A stretch of 18,974 nucleotides of DNA from a virus (Duplodnaviria > Heunggongvirae > Uroviricota > Caudoviricetes), in the IMG/VR virus record IMGVR_UViG_3300036876_000145, positions 83,489-102,462 of that record, one strand, 5' to 3'. Positions 2,640 to 8,438 of the stretch are shown in pieces. Below the pieces are notes generated by a model. The model worked only from the letters and a program-made list of their open reading frames with translations, was not told the DNA's origin and did not search any database. The translations under genes and the position numbers were made by a program. Every line of letters begins with the position of its first letter. Positions within the stretch are counted from its first letter, which is position 1.

Positions 2640-2718
2640 ATTCCGATGGCGTGAGCGGCGAAACCACTTGCCCTACAAGCAAGTATCATCGGGGGTTCGA
2701 GTCCCTCTCGGAATACCA
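2640..2718 (+). tRNA. non-canonical tRNA-like gene; anticodon loop CCUACAA reads as Val-UAC with C33; poorly paired D arm; CCA encoded
   Basis: Acceptor ATTCCGA/TCGGAAT. T arm GGGGG-TTCGAGT-CCCTC, then A73 and CCA. Anticodon stem CTTGC/GCAAG. The D region TGGCGTGAGCGGCGAAACCA offers only a 3-bp TGG/CCA stem. The variable region is 7 nt. Confidence 0.5.
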
Positions 2719-2729
2719 AATTTTAATGT

Positions 2730-2804
2730 GTGGGTGTCGTCCAATGGGAGGACTTTCGGTTTGCACCCGGAGAATGCGAGTTCGAGTCTCGTCACTCTAC
2801 ACCA
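2730..2804 (+). tRNA. tRNA-Ala(UGC) with one bulged nucleotide in the 3' strand of the acceptor stem
   Basis: D arm GTCC-AATGGGA-GGAC. Anticodon arm TTCGG-TTTGCAC-CCGGA. T arm GCGAG-TTCGAGT-CTCGT. The acceptor GTGGGTG pairs with CA(C)TCTAC and keeps G3:U70, A73 and CCA if C2795 is bulged. Confidence 0.7.
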
Positions 2805-2810
2805 AATGTG

Positions 2811-2886
2811 CCGTCCGCGACGGTGATAGATACCAGAAAGCTCTTCGGAGCGCTGGAATGGGGATCAGCCCCTTAGTCATCGCGGC
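2811..2886 (+). ncRNA. tRNA-sized structured spacer made of three hairpins, one capped by C(UUCG)G; not a cloverleaf
   Basis: Hairpins are CCGTC-CGC-GACGG (2811-2823), CCAG..GCTC-TTCG-GAGC..CTGG (2833-2856) and GGGG-ATCAG-CCCC (2860-2872). An alternative end pairing is CCGCGA 2815-2820 with TCGCGG 2880-2885. Confidence 0.3.
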
Positions 2887-2896
2887 TAAATTTATA

Positions 2897-2970
2897 AGCG
2901 GATTAGCCAAGTGGTTAAAGGCATCTGCCTGCAAAGCAGACAAGCACGGGTTCGAATCCCGTATCCGCTT
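2897..2970 (+). tRNA. tRNA-Cys(GCA)
   Basis: Acceptor AGCGGAT/ATCCGCT. D arm GCCA..AGGC with an A13:A22 mismatch. Anticodon loop CTGCAAA (GCA at 2931-2933). T arm ACGGG-TTCGAAT-CCCGT. U73. Confidence 0.9.
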
Positions 2971-2979
2971 CCCAAATTT

Positions 2980-3056
2980 GGGGGTATAGTTCCAACTGGT
3001 AGAACAGCGGCTTGTCGCGCCGATGGTTGCGGGTTCGAATCCCGTTACCCCCGCCA
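2980..3056 (+). tRNA. tRNA-Asp(GUC), CCA encoded
   Basis: Acceptor GGGGGTA/TACCCCC. D arm GTTC-CAACTGGTA-GAAC. Anticodon loop TTGTCGC (GTC at 3014-3016). T arm GCGGG-TTCGAAT-CCCGT. G73 and CCA. Confidence 0.92.
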
Positions 3057-3060
3057 GTTT

Positions 3061-3138
3061 GGTGTGTTGGAGGAGTCTGGTCTTCCTCGCTTCCCTGTCA
3101 CGGAAGATATCACACGGGTTCAAATCCCGTACACACCG
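3061..3138 (+). tRNA. second tRNA-Asp(GUC), with an 11-nt D loop and 7-nt variable region; no encoded CCA
   Basis: Acceptor GGTGTGT/ACACACC. D arm GAGG..CCTC. Anticodon arm CTTCC-CTGTCAC-GGAAG (GTC at 3097-3099). T arm ACGGG-TTCAAAT-CCCGT. G73. Confidence 0.8.
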
Positions 3139-3147
3139 CTTTCGTGA

Positions 3148-3179
3148 CTTCCTGAGTATTAAGTAGAGTACTCAGGAAG
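3148..3179 (+). promoter_or_regulatory. 11-bp hairpin sequestering the GIY-YIG ribosome-binding site
   Basis: CTTCCTGAGTA (3148-3158) pairs perfectly with TACTCAGGAAG (3169-3179). The 3' arm contains the AGGAAG SD, 4 nt before ATG 3184. Confidence 0.55.
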
Positions 3180-3183
3180 GTTC

Positions 3184-3834
3184 ATGATGAAATACACAGT
3201 CTACAAAACTGTGAATCTGGTCAACGGCAAGTTCTACATCGGTGTCCACAAGACGGACAATCCGAATGATGACTACCTTGGTTCTGGGAAGTTCATCAAA
3301 CGAGCCGTTGCGAAGTACGGAGAGCAGAATTTTCGCAAGGAAATTTTGGCTGTCTTTGAAATCCAGAGAGAAGCTTTCGATCTCGAAAAGAAACTCGTGG
3401 TTGAAGCGAAAGTTGATCCACTGTGTTACAACCTGAAAGCTGGCGGTGAAGGTGGGTTTGACTGGATCAATCGTAAGGGATTGAATAACTCGAACGAGAA
3501 CGGCGTGAAAGGAAATCGGGTTACAATTGGAAAAATAAAAACTGACCCAAAGGTAAAGAAGCGATTTACTGACAGGATCAATCGAGTTAGACAGTATCGT
3601 ACTCAAGACTACAAAGCTCGAATTCCTTCGATGTTACAAAAGTGGACAGGACAGCATCATACCGCCGAGACAAAGGCTAGACTTAGCGAAACGCATAAAG
3701 GTAAGAGCAACGGACGCTTTGGAAAACAGTGGATGTATCATCTCGAATCGCAGAGATCAAAGCCTGTCTCACCGGACGAGATCAATAGCCACATTGAACA
3801 AGGTTGGTTGATTGGTCGCCGGATGAAATTTTAG
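3184..3834 (+). CDS. free-standing GIY-YIG homing endonuclease (Seg/I-TevI-like)
   Basis: The N-terminus KYTVYKTVNLVNGKFYIGVHKT...YLGSGK...R...E..E is the classical GIY-YIG motif set. The gene sits between tRNA genes. ATG 3187 is an alternative start. The stop is TAG. Confidence 0.9.
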   Translation: MMKYTVYKTVNLVNGKFYIGVHKTDNPNDDYLGSGKFIKRAVAKYGEQNFRKEILAVFEIQREAFDLEKKLVVEAKVDPLCYNLKAGGEGGFDWINRKGLNNSNENGVKGNRVTIGKIKTDPKVKKRFTDRINRVRQYRTQDYKARIPSMLQKWTGQHHTAETKARLSETHKGKSNGRFGKQWMYHLESQRSKPVSPDEINSHIEQGWLIGRRMKF

Positions 3835-3841
3835 GAGAGAC

Positions 3842-4054
3842 GTGAAGATTCTCTACGATGAACAGCGGCATCTGATCACGGTGCCGTACTCGAAAGAGAA
3901 TCTACATGAAGCAGCGCGGCAGTTGGGTATTAAGCGTTGCTGGTTTCACAAAGACCACTACGACGTTCCTAAGAGAATGATGTCTCGGATGTCGGAGACG
4001 GTAGCAGAAAAAGTTTCGCCGCGTGAAGTTTTGAAGATCGTGCGCGGCAAGTAA
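3842..4054 (+). CDS. DUF4031-family small protein (70 aa)
   Basis: The pattern NLHEAARQLGIKRCWFHKDHYDVP matches my recollection of the DUF4031 signature (ELH.FA..G..R.WF....HYDVP). GTG start with a GGAG SD at 3834-3837. Confidence 0.75.
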   Translation: MKILYDEQRHLITVPYSKENLHEAARQLGIKRCWFHKDHYDVPKRMMSRMSETVAEKVSPREVLKIVRGK

Positions 4055-4058
4055 GTTT

Positions 4059-4135
4059 GGATGGATAGCCAAGTAGGAAAGGCGCTCCCCTGCAAAGGGA
4101 GTCATGCGGGGGTTCAATTCCCTCTCCATCCTCCA
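4059..4135 (+). tRNA. second tRNA-Cys(GCA), CCA encoded
   Basis: Acceptor GGATGGA/TCCATCC. D arm GCCA..AGGC (A13:A22). Anticodon arm CTCCC-CTGCAAA-GGGAG (GCA at 4092-4094). T arm GGGGG-TTCAATT-CCCTC. U73 and CCA. Confidence 0.88.
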
Positions 4136-4137
4136 AA

Positions 4138-4519
4138 TGTACCAGTTCGGGACAACCGCTGGCAGGAAGTTTCTGCGGGAGGGAAAGTTCGGGGCTTCAT
4201 AGAGTACCGTGCGGGGTAACTCCCCGGCGACGGCGCAAGCCGTTGACAATTAGAGCTACAGAGACGAGTCACAGAAGGTGTGCTTGGAAGCGCGTAAGAT
4301 TCACGTCGGTAGTGTTGATGTGAAATGCCCGACCAAGTCCCCTGATGTGGGTGAAACGAGCAATCTTCACGGGAAGCAAGTGCAAATAGGCTGACAGGAA
4401 CTACTCGTTCCGTTATGAATCAGCGGGTAGCATGCTTGAGCGTTGGAGTAATTCAACGCCTAGACGAATGGTTGTCGCCGCGCAAGCGGAACAGAACCCC
4501 GGCTAATAGGACTGGTACA
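4138..4519 (+). ncRNA. rnpB: RNase P RNA, bacterial type A (M1-like), apparently complete
   Basis: P1 4138-4146/4511-4519. P2 4151-4157/4470-4476. P3 4162-4176. CR-I-like GGGAGGGAAAGTTCGGGGCTTCATAGAG at 4177-4204. P8 4212-4226. P9 ACGGC-GCAA-GCCGT at 4230-4243. AAGCAAGTGCAAATAGG at 4374-4390. GGGTAGCATGCTTGAG at 4425-4440. GCCTAGACGAATGG at 4458-4471. AACAGAACCCCGGCTAATAGG at 4490-4510. These align with the recalled E. coli M1 RNA sequence. Confidence 0.9.
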
Positions 4520-4541
4520 AGTTTATGAGTTTTTGAACTAT

Positions 4542-4568
4542 GAGCGACCTATATTAGAGAGGTCGCTC
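4542..4568 (+). promoter_or_regulatory. 8-bp hairpin occluding the SD and GTG start of the HNH gene
   Basis: GAGCGACC (4542-4549) pairs with GGTCGCTC (4561-4568). Wobble and AU pairs extend the stem into GTG 4569-4571. The GAGAGG SD lies at the loop/stem junction. Confidence 0.5.
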
Positions 4569-5006
4569 GTGACAAGTCAAAAAGAAGTTCAAAGACAATT
4601 AGGAATGAGTCGAGGAACCGCCAACTACAGATTGGCGCGTCTTTTACTCTTCAAATACATGCAGCAAGCTGGGGCGGACAACTGTTTTCGCTGCGGTCTA
4701 AAGCTTGAAACGGTTGAAGATTTTAGTATTGAGCATAAAAAACCGTGGTTGTACGCATCCCCAGATTTATATTGGGATTTGGAAAATATTGCTTTTTCGC
4801 ATCGCGCATGTAATTCGGGCGCAGCTAGACAGATCAATAAGACCAAAATGAGTCTTAGATCAGTAGGACCGGAAGGAACAAGTTGGTGTACGGAACATAA
4901 ACAGTTTCTTTCAGTCGATGAATTTCAAAAAAATTCCGCTATTTGGAACGGCTTACAAAGGCAATGCAAAGAATGCCGACAAAAGCGAAATAAAAAGCGG
5001 GCTTAG
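4569..5006 (+). CDS. free-standing HNH homing endonuclease
   Basis: CFRCG...SIEHKKPW...NIAFSHRACN is an HNH motif, and a C-terminal CKEC adds a zinc-finger pair. The ORF is open from TTG 4533, but GTG 4569 has a GAGG SD 6 nt upstream. The TAG stop (5004-5006) lies inside tRNA-Gly. Confidence 0.88.
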   Translation: MTSQKEVQRQLGMSRGTANYRLARLLLFKYMQQAGADNCFRCGLKLETVEDFSIEHKKPWLYASPDLYWDLENIAFSHRACNSGAARQINKTKMSLRSVGPEGTSWCTEHKQFLSVDEFQKNSAIWNGLQRQCKECRQKRNKKRA

Positions 5007-5073
5007 CTCACGCTGGTAGAGCGCTGGTCTTCCAAACCGGAGGTAACGGGATCGTCGCCCGTAGTCCGCTCCA
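4997..5073 (+). tRNA. tRNA-Gly(UCC) with an unusual T loop ATCGTCG (A54/U58 swap); CCA encoded
   Basis: Acceptor GCGGGCT/AGTCCGC. D arm GCTC-ACGCTGGTA-GAGC. Anticodon arm CTGGT-CTTCCAA-ACCGG (TCC at 5031-5033). T stem ACGGG/CCCGT. U73 and CCA. The 5' end overlaps the HNH CDS by 10 nt. Confidence 0.85.
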
Positions 5074-5084
5074 AGTTTAGATAT

Positions 5085-5160
5085 GGCGCACTCTGCTAAC
5101 GGCTAGGCAACCACGTTCTCAGCGTGTGAAATGTGGGTTCAAATCCCGCGTGCGCTACCA
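5085..5160 (+). tRNA. tRNA-Glu(CUC), CCA encoded
   Basis: Acceptor GGCGCAC/GTGCGCT (G1:U72). D arm TGCT-AACGGCTA-GGCA. Anticodon loop TTCTCAG (CTC at 5118-5120). T arm GTGGG-TTCAAAT-CCCGC. A73 and CCA. Confidence 0.85.
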
Positions 5161-5167
5161 GATTTTG

Positions 5168-5222
5168 GCTGACCATGTTCGGCAAGGTCAGCGGTTGGGG
5201 GACATGGCTCAGTACAACCGCT
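5168..5222 (+). other. structured spacer in a tRNA-sized slot: two overlapping hairpins, no cloverleaf
   Basis: GCTGACC (5168-5174) pairs with GGTCAGC (5186-5192). AGCGGTTG (5190-5197) pairs with CAACCGCT (5215-5222). The loop of the second hairpin contains TGGCTCAGT, which resembles a D loop. Confidence 0.25.
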
Positions 5223-5231
5223 GATAACCGT

Positions 5232-5307
5232 GGGGCTATGGCGCAGTTGGGAGCGCGTAATCATGGCATGATTAAGGCCGTCGGTTCGAACCCGACTAGC
5301 TCCACCA
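5232..5307 (+). tRNA. tRNA-Ala(GGC), CCA encoded
   Basis: Acceptor GGGGCTA/TAGCTCC with G3:U70. D arm GCGC-AGTTGGGA-GCGC. Anticodon loop ATGGCAT (GGC at 5265-5267). T arm GTCGG-TTCGAAC-CCGAC. A73 and CCA. Confidence 0.93.
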
Positions 5308-5313
5308 GATTTT

Positions 5314-5388
5314 GCGGAAGTAGTTCAGCGGTAGAATATTTCCTTGCCAAGGAAGGGGTCGCGGGTTCAAATCCCGCCTTCCGCTCCA
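5314..5388 (+). tRNA. tRNA-Gly(GCC), CCA encoded
   Basis: Acceptor GCGGAAG/CTTCCGC. Anticodon loop TTGCCAA (GCC at 5346-5348). T arm GCGGG-TTCAAAT-CCCGC. U73 and CCA. Confidence 0.92.
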
Positions 5389-5399
5389 AGTTTAGAAGT

Positions 5400-5461
5400 T
5401 CATGGATGCCTAGATGTCGGTGGCTAACCGAAAGGTCGCGGGTTCAATGTCCGTTCCATGT
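5400..5461 (+). ncRNA. 62-nt truncated tRNA-like RNA with normal acceptor and T arms but no normal D-plus-anticodon region
   Basis: Acceptor CATGGA/TCCATG. T arm GCGGG-TTCAATG-TCCGT. The interior is only 31 nt and folds in one of two ways. Fold 1 is GCC-11 nt-GGC plus ACC-GAAA-GGT. Fold 2 is TCGGT-GGCTA-ACCGA with no D arm. It abuts the next tRNA with no spacer. Confidence 0.4.
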
Positions 5462-5537
5462 GGGGCTATAGCGCAGTTGGGAGCGCGTCTCGTTCGCAAC
5501 GAGAAGGTCGTGAGTTCGAATCTCACTAGCTCCACCA
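5462..5537 (+). tRNA. tRNA-Ala(CGC), CCA encoded
   Basis: Acceptor and D arm are nearly identical to Ala(GGC), with G3:U70. Anticodon loop TTCGCAA (CGC at 5495-5497). T arm GTGAG-TTCGAAT-CTCAC. A73 and CCA. Confidence 0.93.
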
Positions 5538-5544
5538 AGTTATT

Positions 5545-5617
5545 GCGGGTGTAGTTCAATGGTAGAATATTCGGTTCCCAACCGAAAGATTTGTCGGTTC
5601 GAGTCCGACCATCCGCT
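5545..5617 (+). tRNA. tRNA-Gly(CCC)
   Basis: Acceptor GCGGGTG/CATCCGC. D arm GTTC-AATGGTA-GAAT. Anticodon loop TTCCCAA (CCC at 5577-5579). T arm GTCGG-TTCGAGT-CCGAC. U73. CCA is not fully encoded. Confidence 0.88.
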
Positions 5618-5624
5618 CCGTTTT

Positions 5625-5768
5625 ATGAGAGAGTGTCCAAAGTGCGGTAAGAAAGAACAATGGGAAATCGGTTGGATTTCTACTACCAATGAATGGCGCT
5701 GGCATTGTCTGTCTTGTGATATTCGTTTTAATGATGATGGCGTAATTTACACACCAGAAAAAGTTTAG
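5625..5768 (+). CDS. 47-aa zinc-ribbon protein (MRECPKCGKKEQWEIGWISTTNEWRWHCLSCDIRFNDDGVIYTPEKV)
   Basis: A CPKC...CLSC pair of Cys knuckles. The track ORF 5559-5768 begins inside tRNA-Gly, so ATG 5625 is the first start outside it. No clear SD. Confidence 0.55.
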   Translation: MRECPKCGKKEQWEIGWISTTNEWRWHCLSCDIRFNDDGVIYTPEKV

Positions 5769-5787
5769 GGCCGTGGGACTGCATTGG

Positions 5788-5815
5788 GGTGGTTCGAATC
5801 TCACTAGCTCCACCA
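5788..5815 (+). pseudogene. orphan 3' fragment of tRNA-Ala (T loop, acceptor 3' strand and CCA)
   Basis: 5792-5819 is a perfect 28-nt copy of 5514-5541, the 3' end of tRNA-Ala(CGC) plus its spacer. No matching 5' half or cloverleaf lies upstream. Confidence 0.6.
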
Positions 5816-5822
5816 AGTTTAC

Positions 5823-5926
5823 GTAGGCTTCCGAGGGATACCTCGGTGACAGTTGTTCTGAGGTCATCTCTTCATGAGGGGCTGAACAGGGAACGGCAGC
5901 GTGGGGAAACCCACAAGCCTACACCA
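5823..5926 (+). ncRNA. 104-nt tRNA-shaped RNA of unrecognised family: 8-bp acceptor-like stem plus A-CCA, SelC-like 6-bp/4-nt D arm, long anticodon-like arm with loop CUUCAUG, and a GAAA-capped T-arm substitute
   Basis: GTAGGCTT (5823-5830) pairs with AAGCCTAC (5915-5922), then A and CCA. D arm CCGAGG-GATA-CCTCGG at 5831-5846. TGTTC 5854-5858 pairs with GAACA 5884-5888, stacked on an imperfect stem 5862-5869/5877-5883 with loop 5870-5876. GTGGG-GAAA-CCCAC at 5901-5914. The flanking spacers match those of real tRNAs in the array. Confidence 0.5.
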
Positions 5927-5929
5927 TTT

Positions 5930-6005
5930 GCGCTGTTAGATTAGCGGTAAAATCGTCACCATGACAAGGTGAAAATCGGGGGTTCGATTCCCTCACGGCG
6001 CACCA
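5930..6005 (+). tRNA. tRNA-Val(GAC), CCA encoded
   Basis: Acceptor GCGCTGT/ACGGCGC. D arm GATT-AGCGGTAA-AATC. Anticodon loop ATGACAA (GAC at 5963-5965). T arm GGGGG-TTCGATT-CCCTC. A73 and CCA. Confidence 0.92.
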
Positions 6006-6017
6006 GTTTTTAAATAT

Positions 6018-6095
6018 GGCGTTGTCTTCTAAATGGTCTAGGAAAACTGACTTTCAATCAGTGGAATGCCGGTTCAACTCCGGTCAACGCTACCA
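6018..6095 (+). tRNA. tRNA-Glu(UUC), CCA encoded
   Basis: Acceptor GGCGTTG/CAACGCT (G1:U72). Anticodon arm ACTGA-CTTTCAA-TCAGT (TTC at 6053-6055). T arm GCCGG-TTCAACT-CCGGT. A73 and CCA. Confidence 0.85.
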
Positions 6096-6102
6096 GAATT
6101 GA

Positions 6103-6177
6103 GAGGGAGTAGCTCAGCGGTAGAGCAGAATATTGCCAATATTCAGGTCGCGGGTTCAACTCCCGTCTCCCTCTCCA
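6103..6177 (+). tRNA. second tRNA-Gly(GCC), CCA encoded
   Basis: Acceptor GAGGGAG/CTCCCTC. D arm GCTC-AGCGGTA-GAGC. Anticodon loop TTGCCAA (GCC at 6135-6137). T arm GCGGG-TTCAACT-CCCGT. U73 and CCA. Confidence 0.92.
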
Positions 6178-6226
6178 ACATTTATGCGAATCTATTCAAA
6201 AGTTTATTTTCGCTTTATGGTGTGTT

Positions 6227-6382
6227 ATGAGAAAACTAAAGAGACTAAGCAAGGTCAAACTCGTGAAGGAAATGTCCAGGGAGAGGGTGCCAGTCCCCGC
6301 GACCCGCAAGATTGAAAATAAGAAAAAGAAATTTTTGCGTTACTTAGAAACACATTGGCAGGAAGATGAATTGGGGGTATAG
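6227..6382 (+). CDS. 51-aa highly basic ORF (MRKLKRLSKVKLVKEMSRERVPVPATRKIENKKKKFLRYLETHWQEDELGV), hypothetical
   Basis: Own translation; below the track cutoff. The stop TAG (6380-6382) lies inside the next tRNA-Ala. No clear SD. A 43-codon alternative frame starting at ATG 6184 looks less protein-like. Confidence 0.3.
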   Translation: MRKLKRLSKVKLVKEMSRERVPVPATRKIENKKKKFLRYLETHWQEDELGV

Positions 6383-6448
6383 CTCAGCTGGGAGAGCGCA
6401 TCGTTTGCAACGATGAGGTCGTCGGTTCGATCCCGTCTACCTCCACCA
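6373..6448 (+). tRNA. tRNA-Ala(UGC), CCA encoded
   Basis: Acceptor GGGGGTA/TACCTCC with G3:U70. D arm GCTC-AGCTGGGA-GAGC. Anticodon loop TTTGCAA (TGC at 6406-6408). T arm GTCGG-TTCGATC-CCGTC with one U:U mismatch. A73 and CCA. Confidence 0.9.
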
Positions 6449-6463
6449 AAATTTAGGGGATGT

Positions 6464-6823
6464 ATGTTAAAGGAATTAAACGACTACAACTGGGCTGAAG
6501 TATTTGGTGAGGGAAGCGGTGGAAACTGCTTTTCGATCAAGCCAAATCGTGCCCCACAAGATACGGAGACATCCATTGGTACGTTTTCCCGCGAGGATGT
6601 AAAAAAACTCTATGGGCAATCTGACGGTGAAAATGATGAACAAAGTTGGGTATGTTGGGGTAAACTAAAAGACGGTCGCTGGTTTGTTGCTCGTGGCGAC
6701 TGCGATTACACCGGCTGGGATTGCAGTGCATCTAATAGCGGAGATGTTGCATCGTCTAAAAAAGATATTATCCGTTTTGGGCTTGATGCTAACGAGCGAT
6801 CACGTTTTAATTTGACGATTTAA
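6464..6823 (+). CDS. hypothetical protein, 119 aa (MLKELNDYNWAEVFGEGSGGNC...WVCWGKLKDGRWFVARGDCDYTGWDC...)
   Basis: The track ORF 6413-6823 starts inside tRNA-Ala. ATG 6464 follows an AGGGGA SD at 6455-6460. The stop is TAA. No family recognised. Confidence 0.7.
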   Translation: MLKELNDYNWAEVFGEGSGGNCFSIKPNRAPQDTETSIGTFSREDVKKLYGQSDGENDEQSWVCWGKLKDGRWFVARGDCDYTGWDCSASNSGDVASSKKDIIRFGLDANERSRFNLTI

Positions 6824-6845: not shown

Positions 6846-7019
6846 CTATCTTCCTCGTAATCTCTGCCGTAATTTAGTCATAGGGTTATGCGCCACTTTA
6901 GCTGCCCTCTTAACCACGGGGCAATCACTCATTTTTTTAGCACAACGTGGTAAATCTCCTCGCTGCCCCCACACCTTACCTGGTTGACCGCATCCGTATT
7001 GACAGTAAACTTCATCCAT
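6846..7019 (-). CDS. 57-aa Cys-rich basic protein (MDEVYCQYGCGQPGKVWGQRGDLPRCAKKMSDCPVVKRAAKVAHNPMTKLRQRLRGR), probable zinc-binding
   Basis: Own base-by-base reverse translation; below the track cutoff. It has a C-x3-C...C-x6-C arrangement. Two TATAAT boxes lie just upstream on the minus strand, inside the tandem repeat. Confidence 0.5.
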   Translation of the reverse strand: MDEVYCQYGCGQPGKVWGQRGDLPRCAKKMSDCPVVKRAAKVAHNPMTKLRQRLRGR

Positions 7020-7032
7020 ATTAAATACATGC

Positions 7033-7070
7033 GGTATTATAGATAATGGGGTATTATAGATAATGGGGTA
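7033..7070. repeat. 17-bp tandem direct repeat (GGTATTATAGATAATGG x2 plus a partial copy) in a divergent promoter region
   Basis: Copies at 7033-7049 and 7050-7066, with a partial copy at 7067-7070. Each unit carries GATAAT on the + strand and TATAAT on the - strand. Confidence 0.8.
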
Positions 7071-7073
7071 CTT

Positions 7074-7766
7074 ATGCCAAAAATAGTTTTTATTTCAGAT
7101 ACTCATGGGTTACACGGTCAGATGCAGGTGCCCGAAGGAGATATTTTAGTTCATGCTGGAGATATGACTAATGTAGGGCGTATAAATGAAGTTGCTGCCT
7201 TGGGCGTATGGCTCCGTGAAATGGAAAAACGTTTTAAATTTATCGTGATCGTCGCGGGTAATCACGATTGGCTTTTTCAGAAAAATAGAGCCTTGGCTGA
7301 AAGCCTGATAAATCAAGGTACAATGGGAGAAGCTACGGGTAAAATCATCTATTTACAAGATAGTGGAGTTACAATTGATGGCTTAAAAATACATGGAAGT
7401 CCTCAAACTCCTTGGTTTTTTGATTGGGCCTTTAATGTACGCCGAGGAGAACTTAAGCCCTATTGGGATAAGATCCCTGAAGGTCTGGACATATTAATTA
7501 CTCACGGTCCTCCCAGTGGTATACTGGATCAAGCAGACCCTCATTTAGGCAGTGAACATGTAGGCTGTGAAGAACTTATGGAAGCGGTGGAGCGCACCAA
7601 ACCAAAAATCCATGTATTCGGACATATACATGGCGGGTATGGTAAAATGGAACATGTGAATACCACATTTATCAATGCTTCAATTTGCGATGAACGGTAC
7701 AAACCGATTAACGCCCCTTGGGTTATTGATATGGAGCCCCGTGATACACATGGCGAAGAAAAATAA
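7074..7766 (+). CDS. calcineurin-like metallophosphoesterase
   Basis: The motif series ISDTHG, HAGDMTN, VAGNHD, ITHGPP and VFGHIHG. Confidence 0.92.
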   Translation: MPKIVFISDTHGLHGQMQVPEGDILVHAGDMTNVGRINEVAALGVWLREMEKRFKFIVIVAGNHDWLFQKNRALAESLINQGTMGEATGKIIYLQDSGVTIDGLKIHGSPQTPWFFDWAFNVRRGELKPYWDKIPEGLDILITHGPPSGILDQADPHLGSEHVGCEELMEAVERTKPKIHVFGHIHGGYGKMEHVNTTFINASICDERYKPINAPWVIDMEPRDTHGEEK

Positions 7767-7938
7767 GCTACCTTCGGCGGCTTTATTGTTAAAAACTTTG
7801 GCTGGTGTAATGGCTATGGGATTACCTTACAAAAAAGGAATCTGTATATCTTGTGGGGTAACAGAAAGTAAAAAACATCACACTGACTGCTACTATCTAG
7901 ACGCTTTGAATTTGATAGTGAAATATTATAAGCCATGA
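7750..7938 (+). CDS. hypothetical 62-aa protein (MAKKNKLPSAALLLKTLAGVMAMGLPYKKGICISCGV...)
   Basis: This is the in-frame internal ATG of track ORF 7675-7938. It overlaps the phosphoesterase 3' end by 17 nt. No SD, so the call is weak. Confidence 0.4.
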   Translation: MAKKNKLPSAALLLKTLAGVMAMGLPYKKGICISCGVTESKKHHTDCYYLDALNLIVKYYKP

Positions 7939-8014: not shown

Positions 8015-8170
8015 ATGATTCAGTATCAACTCAAGTTGAGAATGTGCAAGTCGCAAGAACAACAATGCGAACAGTTTCTTTATCACCTGTCCTCTGTTTG
8101 GAACTGGGCGGTGAGGAAGATAGAACTCAGCGCGGCAGGATGTGCCGTCGAGGGTTACGCTTATGTGTAG
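8015..8170 (+). pseudogene. 51-aa ORF resembling the N-terminus of TnpB (IS200/IS605 OrfB family); a truncated relic
   Basis: MIQYQLKLRMCKSQEQQCEQFLYHLSSVWNWAVRKIEL fits the TnpB N-terminal pattern Y-K/x-hR-h...Q...L......V-Y/W-N-x-A. It has a strong AAAGGAGG SD. Full-length TnpB is about 400 aa, and here a stop comes after 51 codons. Confidence 0.45.
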
Positions 8171-8438
8171 CCGTTCAGGAATCCCAGACTTCAAGTCTGG
8201 GAGCATCAATAACGACCCTAAACTCGTAGCACTGGCTATACTTGTTCGAAAATACGGCACCAAAATATCTGGGGGTGCATACGAAATTTTCATTACCAGT
8301 GAAGATTTTGCAGATTTTTCTTCATTCGGTGAATTGGTTGAGACGAAGGATGAAGAACGCAAAAGACTCAGTTTGCGTTATTATCCTAATCCTACAATTG
8401 AAGGTGAAGGTGGACTTATTGAATCGACCGGGGGTTAA
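8163..8438 (+). CDS. hypothetical 91-aa protein (...NNDPKLVALAILVRKYGTKISGGAYEIFITSEDFADFSSFGELVETKDEERKRLSLRYYPNPTIEGEGGLIESTGG)
   Basis: Track ORF 8142-8438. ATG 8163 has a GAGGG SD 8 nt upstream. There is no in-frame ATG, GTG or TTG downstream of the hairpin until about 8334, so the start must lie upstream of hairpin 2. Confidence 0.45.
   Translation: MCSRSGIPDFKSGSINNDPKLVALAILVRKYGTKISGGAYEIFITSEDFADFSSFGELVETKDEERKRLSLRYYPNPTIEGEGGLIESTGG
8180..8201. repeat. hairpin repeat copy 2 (AATCCCAGACT-tca-AGTCTGGG)
   Basis: The 8-bp stem 8183-8190/8194-8201 sits 12 nt after the stop of the TnpB-like ORF. It lies inside the candidate CDS 8163-8438, where it encodes GIPDFKSGS. Confidence 0.7.

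Follow-up and report, generated by a model that had tools for sequence, protein, structure and literature searches.

The element described here, a 104-nucleotide (nt) RNA gene at positions 5823–5926 (+ strand) of the window, by which we mean the whole 18,974-nt stretch that was analysed (positions 83,489 to 102,462 of the IMG/VR virus record IMGVR_UViG_3300036876_000145, Caudoviricetes), has its closest described counterparts among the bacterial selenocysteine tRNAs (tRNA-Sec), the allo-tRNAs, the Y RNAs, engineered tRNA scaffolds and two RNAs from the tRNA region of phage T4. Bacterial tRNA-Sec combines an acceptor stem of 8 base pairs (bp) and a 5-bp T stem with a D arm of 6 bp and a 4-nt loop, and its discriminator is G73. 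The allo-tRNAs have normal T loops, and the Y RNAs keep both the T loop and the D loop, end in a Ro-binding stem and have no CCA end. A minihelix of acceptor and T stem with an RCCA end is the minimal substrate of bacterial ribonuclease P (RNase P). RNA species I and II of phage T4 are stable RNAs with no known function, released from the precursors that also yield the tRNAs. They are encoded in the T4 tRNA region, alongside a homing-endonuclease gene (PMC2330249). Allo-tRNAs are defined by a 12-bp acceptor branch (8/4 or 9/3) and a long variable arm (V-arm), and tRNA-like transcripts of irregular form, which can be charged yet are unused in translation, are on record from metatranscriptomes of forest and peat soils and are attributed to Acidobacteria (PMC5389517).

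The element is a real, conserved non-coding RNA gene, one unit of a polycistronic tRNA array, and its RNA is encoded on the + strand. Its predicted fold reaches −48.1 kcal/mol (z = −4.4), a stability attained by none of 200 shuffles, and a homologue was found in a second lineage with a covariance model made from the single window sequence and its predicted fold (R1; the two-sequence model is R2). The homologue lies at 7827–7929 of L060 (= 339–441 of L061) and scored 92.5 bits (E 2.5e-20); L060 is a 53-kilobase (kb) contig of a related jumbo phage, whose phosphoesterase is 65% identical to that of the window. We take the RNA to act from the + strand because both fold energy and model scores favour it: the opposite strand folds to only −37.8 kcal/mol, about 10 kcal/mol worse, and the covariance models score 123–131 bits on the + strand versus 26–28 on the − strand. 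A scan for promoter and terminator consensus sequences around the element found nothing above shuffle expectation. The parts of the element and its flanks, followed by the RNase P RNA gene of the same array, are these:

5816–5822, + strand: 5′ spacer AGTTTAC, a presumed RNase P leader (putative cleavage); the same 7 bases precede the L060 homologue
5823–5830, + strand: 5′ strand of the 8-bp terminal (acceptor-like) stem, GUAGGCUU, pairing with 5915–5922
5831–5846, + strand: arm ii, CCGAGG-GAUA-CCUCGG, a 6-bp stem with a 4-nt loop, abutting the terminal stem with no linker
5847–5851, + strand: UGACA, the junction of arms ii and iii, predicted to be unpaired; 1 nt shorter in the homologue (UGGG)
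5852–5897, + strand: arm iii, an 8-bp outer helix GUUGUUCU/GGAACGGC (5852–5859 with 5890–5897), supported by covariation, enclosing the core hairpin
5858–5888, + strand: 31-nt core CUGAGGUCAUCUCUUCAUGAGGGGCUGAACA, with a purine-rich internal loop, a slippery inner stem and an apical loop centred on UCAU; identical in both copies
5898–5900, + strand: AGC, joining arms iii and iv, the same in both copies and too short for a variable arm
5901–5914, + strand: arm iv, GUGGG-GAAA-CCCAC, a 5-bp stem with a GNRA tetraloop in the T-arm position, abutting the 3′ strand of the terminal stem
5915–5922, + strand: 3′ strand of the terminal stem, AAGCCUAC, with 8/8 pairs kept in the homologue
5923–5926, + strand: unpaired A, then a genome-encoded CCA; ACCA is the same in both copies
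5927–5929, + strand: 3′ spacer TTT, ahead of tRNA-Val(gac) at 5930–6005; the same TTT stands before tRNA-Val(cac) in L060
4139–4522, + strand: RNase P RNA of bacterial class A, encoded within the phage's array and a candidate for the 5′ processing of the element; Rfam RF00010, 169 bits

Comparison of the two copies carries the case for a maintained structure. All 33 modelled pairs stay standard in both, and 10 of them are changed on both sides, a combination of pair retention and double change that was matched by 0 of 500 shuffles. When partners were slid by 1–3 columns pairing fell to 32–50%, and RNAalifold yielded the same structure independently. Helix by helix, the terminal stem contributes one of the double changes, A3-U98 in the window being G-C in the homologue, while G4-C97 has become G-U. 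Arm ii keeps 6/6 pairs, two of them changed on both sides, under a loop that reads GAUA in the window and CGUA in the homologue; the outer helix of arm iii keeps 8/8, with five changed on both sides and one on one side; and arm iv keeps 5/5, two changed on both sides, its loop going from GAAA to GAGA and so remaining a GNRA tetraloop. The stem and loop sizes of the terminal stem, arm ii and arm iv are the same in the two copies. A shared reading frame is ruled out because a 1-nt indel in the junction of arms ii and iii separates them. The covariation shows a four-helix junction architecture and indicates that the RNA structure of the element is under selection.

An earlier reading, made from the window's sequence alone, had described three of these arms as we find them: an 8-bp stem followed by A and CCA, where the homologue has a compensatory change; a CCGAGG-GAUA-CCUCGG arm, whose sizes are kept through compensatory changes; and a GUGGG-GAAA-CCCAC arm abutting the acceptor 3′ strand, which is kept in the homologue as a GNRA-capped 5-bp stem. 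Its proposed check by covariation across homologues thus came out in favour of the helices (10 pairs changed on both sides). For arm iii it had drawn a UGUUC/GAACA helix, four of whose five pairs are broken in the homologue; the helix that the comparison supports is 5852–5859/5890–5897. Its broader claim of a discrete four-armed RNA with a tRNA-like end, set in an array slot, is borne out by the fold and the homologue together.

Within arm iii, the core stands apart. Its 31 nt are identical between the lineages (31/31), against 46 of 73 positions (63%) outside it. Between these two phages, orthologous tRNAs share 62–87% identity, with no identical run longer than 22 nt; of the array's RNAs compared, the RNase P RNA alone has a longer run (37 nt). 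By a hand estimate, 31 straight identities at a per-site identity of 63–75% have p ~1e-6 to 1e-4 per start position; the core is therefore constrained in sequence, not in structure alone. In its predicted fold a purine-rich 4 × 4 internal loop (GAGG opposite ACAG) is followed by three pairs that are firm by their pair probabilities (U42-A63, C43-G62 and A44-U61), then by a slippery CUCU/GGGG stem and the apical loop, in which C51, A52 and U53 are unpaired in all registers. One register of the loop is CUUCAUG, with UCA at the anticodon positions and U at position 37; another, UUCAUGA, gives U33, CAU, G37 and A38, and is the better fit to tRNA loop rules. The sequence-only reading had placed UCA at the anticodon positions: UCA does lie in the loop region, but it takes those positions in only one of several registers of the slippery stem, and then with U37. 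By inspection, the core also holds GAGG with AUG AGG GGC UGA ten bases later, and the loop contains the self-complementary UCAUGA.

The element sits in register with the 16 tRNA genes on the + strand at 2640–6448 of the window, all of which carry encoded CCA ends, and AGTTT-type spacers come after most tRNAs of the array. In L060 the homologue is preceded by AGTTTAC and followed by ACCA-TTT and then by tRNA-Val(cac); the gene before it is an intact tRNA-Glu(ctc), with no Ala-like piece upstream. The element had been said to occupy an array slot with the spacers of genuine tRNAs, and this is right for AGTTTAC and TTT; the CCA that precedes the leader, however, comes from no intact tRNA but from a decayed tRNA-Ala 3′ fragment. 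This fragment (~5789–5815) lies directly upstream of the leader and repeats the end of tRNA-Ala(cgc) (5462–5537), and neither ARAGORN nor Rfam calls a tRNA there.

Covariance-model searches (R1/R2) found the element in 2 of ~13 syntenic arrays with the window's composition (tRNAs for GNN codons plus tRNA-Cys) and in 0 of ~10 other arrays. It is a rare, dispensable accessory gene, or one replaced elsewhere by other elements, because ~11 syntenic arrays are without it. Sixteen strains from different samples, at least 99.7% identical, carry an identical element, which adds no independent information, and in the nearest relatives, L001 and L002, nothing occupies the place between tRNA-Ala(cgc) and tRNA-Val(gac). 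No match to positions 5760–5930 was found by blastn among 50,697 phage records, and no homologue by nhmmer and blastn among the first fetched relatives, nor by exact and degenerate pattern scans of IMG/VR or of 185,579 species genomes.

In architecture and core, the element fits no described RNA family. Rfam 15 gave nothing at gathering score for the element. At E ≤ 10, the element alone had zero matches and the homologue only chance ones (a microRNA, a long non-coding RNA and a viral frameshift element), with no match to tRNA (RF00005), tRNA-Sec (RF01852) or transfer-messenger RNA (tmRNA) in either. ARAGORN reported no tRNA or tmRNA, even with introns (-i), relaxed scores (-ps80) or mitochondrial models (-mt). 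The search for a tRNA or tRNA-Sec match by these two programs, which had been put forward as a check, thus came back empty for both copies. Likenesses seen by eye to hammerhead, signal recognition particle RNA and Y RNA have no Rfam support at E ≤ 10, and neither have the C4-type antisense RNAs, which we considered since RNase P processes them too.

Among the systems named at the outset, T4 RNA species I and II share with the element the placing of a non-tRNA RNA gene inside a phage tRNA cluster, here between tRNA genes of the same strand; in sequence, the element region found no blastn match in the 50,697 phage records, which we assume to include T4. Engineered tRNA scaffolds and minihelices (PMC3753655) likewise have a stackable acceptor stem and 5-bp hairpin, an RCCA end, and a foreign RNA module in the anticodon-arm position of a tRNA-like frame, but the engineered scaffolds are man-made and keep the D and T loops, whereas the element is natural and has tetraloops at both places. 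The bacterial Y RNAs (YrlA; PMC4201824) are, like the element, RNAs of ~100 nt that imitate a portion of a tRNA but take no part in translation; the element has no Rfam match to Y RNA (E ≤ 10). Non-tRNA RNAs in phage tRNA regions and irregular, non-translational tRNA-like RNAs attributed to Acidobacteria are known kinds, and it is the present architecture and core that fall outside the described families.

The best explanation as a whole, and on balance a probable one, is that tRNA enzymes excise the RNA and that its tRNA-like frame presents the invariant hairpin to a partner. Going by what is known of bacterial tRNA processing, the array would be transcribed as one precursor. RNase P, using either the host's RNA or the phage's own (4139–4522), would cut right before G5823, between C5822 and G5823. 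The terminal stem and arm iv, which follow on each other as 8 + 5 bp without a linker and lead into ACCA, as in a minihelix-type RNase P substrate, could stack into a 13-bp tRNA-like minihelix, and it would be by this minihelix and the 3′ ACCA that the enzyme recognises the element. An RNase P cut at the downstream tRNA-Val, followed by 3′ trimming, would then expose the encoded CCA end. The tRNA-like frame would serve as a handle for processing and stability, and the working part would be the sequence-invariant core hairpin, binding a specific protein or RNA; as a candidate role, it might act as a decoy or sponge and capture a factor specific for the anticodon arms of tRNAs. Earlier suggestions of a substrate mimic for RNase P or the CCA enzyme, or of a decoy, are compatible with this explanation and come close to it. 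Given current views of phage tRNAs, a decoy against tRNA-targeting defences may be proposed as speculation (PMC10264068).

A more specific version, which we offer tentatively and with some doubt, is that the element represents a new class of jumbo-phage small RNA, a natural ‘tRNA scaffold’ whose chassis consists of the acceptor minihelix, the CCA end and tetraloops in place of the D and T loops. With such a chassis the RNA would be excised and stabilized by the enzymes that process tRNAs, the phage's RNase P RNA among them, and the payload would be the 31-nt hairpin. That payload might be a decoy, either for a defence nuclease of the host that attacks tRNAs or for a tRNA-binding enzyme; it might be a ribosome-binding module, because the core contains GAGG-N10-AUG AGG GGC UGA; or it might be a kissing-loop dimerizer, because UCAUGA is self-complementary.

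Several results weigh against excision of the RNA by tRNA enzymes and presentation of its hairpin to a partner. The element is carried by the window lineage and L060/L061 only, the ~11 other syntenic arrays being without it, and with two lineages the covariation is a single pairwise comparison. The inner-stem region of the core does not vary between the copies and is hence silent on its own pairing and register. Transcription of the element, its cleavage by RNase P and its mature size are all things we infer. As for partners, no protein gene was common to the two carriers alone, the DNA compared being the 19-kb window and ~10 kb to each side of the L060 anchor gene. A search of the two genomes for antisense targets gave best duplexes of −29 to −31 kcal/mol, as against −25 to −33 for shuffled cores, and exact complementary matches to the core did not exceed 10 nt. 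The conserved 8 + 5 and 6/4 geometry is also left unexplained by a pure scaffold model, and could reflect recognition by a tRNA-specific enzyme. A 47-amino-acid zinc-ribbon open reading frame (ORF; 5625–5768) was considered as the partner and rejected, being an orphan that is not found next to the homologue.

Of the alternatives, the one that survives best, although we think it rather unlikely, would make the element a cis-acting piece of the array transcript with no separate existence: a processing, punctuation or stabilizing module, perhaps a site where RNase P, RNase E or RNase III enters or pauses, or one that insulates folding ahead of tRNA-Val. In both lineages the element stands TTT away from a downstream tRNA-Val, and the isoacceptors differ (gac in the window, cac in L060); further structured non-tRNA spacers are conserved in these arrays, and most relatives do without the element, all of which would suit such a role. 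A spacer, however, needs neither an acceptor-like stem with an exact ACCA nor a 31-nt hairpin of invariant sequence, and most tRNA-Val genes of the related arrays have no element before them.

By analogy with known irregular tRNAs, the element could also be charged, through its acceptor end or its loop, and act away from the ribosome as an amino-acid donor or a synthetase sink, an idea we regard as improbable. The acceptor-like stem, the unpaired A and the CCA end are intact, the UUCAUGA register offers U33, CAU and a purine at 37, and related arrays encode a class II synthetase-like protein of 234 amino acids. There is precedent, too, in irregular tRNAs that are charged yet unused in translation (PMC5389517). 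Against this, the synthetase-like gene is absent from the window although the element is present there, and the distance from anticodon to acceptor is far off tRNA geometry. No identity set can be recognized: the third pair of the terminal stem is A3-U70 in the window and G3-C70 in the homologue, not G3-U70, which is the alanine identity pair.

A derived decoder of the selenocysteine, opal-suppressor or allo-tRNA kind, charged for instance by seryl-tRNA synthetase (SerRS) and reading UGA through UCA, had been among the suggestions of the sequence-only reading, and it is now very improbable; on our reading the element does not decode codons, being neither a tRNA-Sec nor a suppressor tRNA. The attraction of the idea lies in dimensions. 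The branch of 8 + 5 = 13 bp and the 6-bp/4-nt arm in the D position match those of bacterial tRNA-Sec (selC; RF01852) and are kept exactly in both copies, the length of ~100 nt and the 3′ CCA agree as well, and UCA falls in the apical loop region. Beyond these sizes several defining traits of tRNA-Sec are missing, the RF01852 match included. In place of the T loop, canonically a 7-nt loop of the GTTCRANNC type, there is a 4-nt GAAA (GAGA in the homologue), and the discriminator position holds A instead of G73. Arm ii, a GAUA/CGUA tetraloop on a 6-bp stem, is no D loop with G18/G19, so that there is no elbow. The long variable arm needed by SerRS is missing, AGC alone linking arms iii and iv. 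No linker separates the terminal stem from arm ii, which is followed by one of 5 nt.

The would-be anticodon arm departs further still. A single long arm with an internal loop takes the place of the anticodon and extra arms, and its apical loop lies past the 8-bp helix, the 4 × 4 internal loop and an inner stem of ~7 bp, or ~19 stacked layers from the junction, versus the 5-bp anticodon stem of a tRNA; the arm is ~2 times the normal length. The helix that had framed this arm is contradicted by the homologue, and the register that displays UCA puts a pyrimidine at 37. Among the genes called in ~10 kb either side, none has a Pfam match to the selenocysteine machinery (selA, selB, selD), and no SECIS element appears in that stretch. 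Two statements of the earlier reading fare well here: with no T loop, no D loop or elbow and no RF00005 match, the element cannot be an ordinary elongator tRNA; and no long ORF of the window needs UGA read-through, the long ORFs being intact under code 11.

The allo-tRNAs and irregular tRNA-like transcripts resemble the element in their non-canonical cloverleaf sizes, lengthened acceptor stem and polycistronic setting (PMC5389517). The biological setting is alike too, that of soil and peat Acidobacteria and their phages: the closest cultured relative of the window's phage is Tunturiibacter phage Tunturi_5 (45% amino-acid identity, one protein compared), which infects the acidobacterium Tunturiibacter. 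By description, however, the two are set apart, the element having an 8/5 branch of 13 bp and not 12 bp, a 3-nt linker instead of the long V-arm, and no T loop.

That the element arose by the decay of a tRNA, or by the fusing of tRNA fragments left by recombination and homing-endonuclease traffic, is less probable again and largely refuted. True debris is common in these arrays (the Ala fragment at ~5789–5815, a degenerate tRNA-like piece at 5389–5461 and chimeric fragments in L001), GIY-YIG and HNH endonuclease genes lie within the array, and the stem of arm iv, GUGGG/CCCAC, is the T stem of tRNA-Val(tac) in relatives, which makes an ultimate tRNA ancestry plausible. Debris would not, however, retain 33/33 pairs through 10 double substitutions, hold a 31-nt core invariant with 63% identity around it, or keep ACCA, the GNRA loop and the flanking spacers together; nor does any stretch of the element align to any tRNA of the fetched loci. 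The homologue shows a maintained gene where a fusion of two decayed tRNA halves had been named as the finding that would undo the earlier reading, and the 63% identity outside the core argues against a very recent transfer between the copies.

Finally, there is next to no chance that the element is half of a permuted two-piece tmRNA with the Ala-like fragment (5789–5815) as its acceptor piece, a candidate raised by the only match in an Rfam scan of 5600–6010 at E ≤ 10 (tmRNA_permuted, 5789–5895, 15.3 bits, E 0.44) and by the ability of GGGGCUG (5878–5884) to pair with UAGCUCC, with a G-U at the third pair: 15 bits compare with a gathering score of 47, ARAGORN finds no tmRNA, tRNA-Val, at 5930, leaves no space for a tag reading frame ahead of it, the covarying helices are the element's own, and the homologue, preceded by an intact tRNA-Glu without an Ala-like piece, refutes it by its context.

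The genome to which the window belongs is that of a large phage. Besides GIY-YIG and HNH homing endonucleases, the window encodes a DNA methyltransferase and a metallophosphoesterase, as well as large proteins that have no Pfam matches. Its tRNA array (2640–6448) comprises tRNAs for GNN codons only (Val, Ala, Asp, Glu and Gly, often every isoacceptor) plus tRNA-Cys, a composition also seen in the syntenic arrays of L001, L002, L025, L056, L058, L060, L062 and L080, while other arrays of related giant phages gather other codon boxes, for example Ser/Phe/Leu or Met/Val/Gly. Syntenic arrays were found in contigs of 170–465 kb. A class A RNase P RNA is likewise encoded in the arrays of L001 (4604–4902), L002 (5964–6314) and L025 (5302–5612), the scores, that of the window included, being 169–210 bits; its gene is complete and inside the array in every relative checked, usually directly 3′ of tRNA-Cys, and no RNase P protein gene is among the Pfam matches of the genes neighbouring it.

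Homing-endonuclease genes of the GIY-YIG (SegE-like, NUMOD3) and HNH types and a DUF4031 gene are scattered between the tRNA genes of the window (3184–3834, 3842–4054 and 4533–5006). Their presence varies among relatives, which is consistent with endonuclease-driven shuffling of array modules, and SegB of T4 is a GIY-YIG homing endonuclease encoded within that phage's tRNA gene cluster (PMC2330249). Relative to L001 and L002, where tRNA-Val(gac) directly follows tRNA-Ala(cgc), the window has an insertion at 5538–5822 that contains tRNA-Gly(ccc), the zinc-ribbon ORF and the decayed tRNA-Ala 3′ fragment, which repeats the ...CTCACTAGCTCCACCAAGTT end; this repeat resembles the trace that recombination between the 3′ ends of tRNAs would leave. 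Between tRNA-Gly(gcc) and tRNA-Ala(cgc) there is a degenerate tRNA-like piece that has no CCA (5389–5461; CAUGGAU...GCGGGUUCAAUGUCCGU-UCCAUG); it is called by neither ARAGORN nor Rfam, and may be compared with L001 5172–5229.

The related arrays hold other structured RNAs. One family of CCA-ended mini-RNAs, ~44 nt long and not in the window, occurs at L002 6660–6703, L056 ~7196–7240 and L060 8122–8165; in it a 7-bp stem, GCCGGAG/CUCCGGC, is combined with a 5-bp hairpin, whose AGAGAUA loop is invariant, and then with a single-stranded ACAAACU and U-CCA, and both helices show compensatory changes across the three lineages. Another, of ~57 nt and also not in the window, occurs at L001 5520–5576, L060 8045–8101, L062 ~8150–8210 and L065 ~6920–6975. 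Its members form a tRNA-Ala-like minihelix (G1-C72, G2-C71, G3-U70) with a T-arm-like GUGGG-UGCCAAAU-CCCAC and ACCA but no anticodon arm, and, judged by the acceptor stem, could be substrates of alanyl-tRNA synthetase.

A structured spacer of ~95–115 nt after tRNA-Ala(tgc), with the pattern GUGCCGUCCGCGACGG ... GGGG-loop-CCCC ... CAUCGCGGCUAAAUUU, is conserved in all relatives and has no Rfam match (window 2801–2895, L001 4086–4199, L002 5103–5198, L025 4638–4735 and L060 ~5760–5855). In L025 an unrelated 154-nt element without a CCA end (6352–6505; −55.6 kcal/mol, z = −4.9) takes up the slot of tRNA-Ala(cgc)/tRNA-Val(gac); it has only a short GAUA..UACCGACACA motif in common with a mini-element of L002. 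Homology of the 104-nt element with these slot fillers of L025 and L002 was considered and rejected: they have a short GAUACC...GACA motif only, with no support from alignment or model.

The class II synthetase-like protein mentioned above stands alone (PF00587; annotated at JGI as glycyl-tRNA synthetase) and is encoded in many arrays but not in the window (L002 ~7063–7770, L060 8329–9033, L062 8406–9017, L063 1138–1842 and L080 10001–10705). It has more than 1,900 homologues, many of them on contigs of ~460 kb.

Phage tRNA arrays are usually taken as sets of decoders. Here, one slot of such an array holds an RNA that keeps only those parts of a tRNA that processing enzymes use, together with a sequence-critical hairpin that is a feature of no tRNA. 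Because at least two further families of CCA-ended mini-RNAs share these arrays, the arrays may be production lines for tRNA-like RNAs that serve outside translation. The R2 model and the invariant 31-mer offer a direct route to further members, and they also define a transcript on which cleavage by the phage-encoded RNase P RNA could be assayed. If expressed, the element would exemplify tRNA-scaffolded RNA delivery in nature and would give a handle on how jumbo phages use tRNA-like RNAs beyond translation, be it in counter-defence, in the control of synthetases or RNases, or in the targeting of ribosomes.

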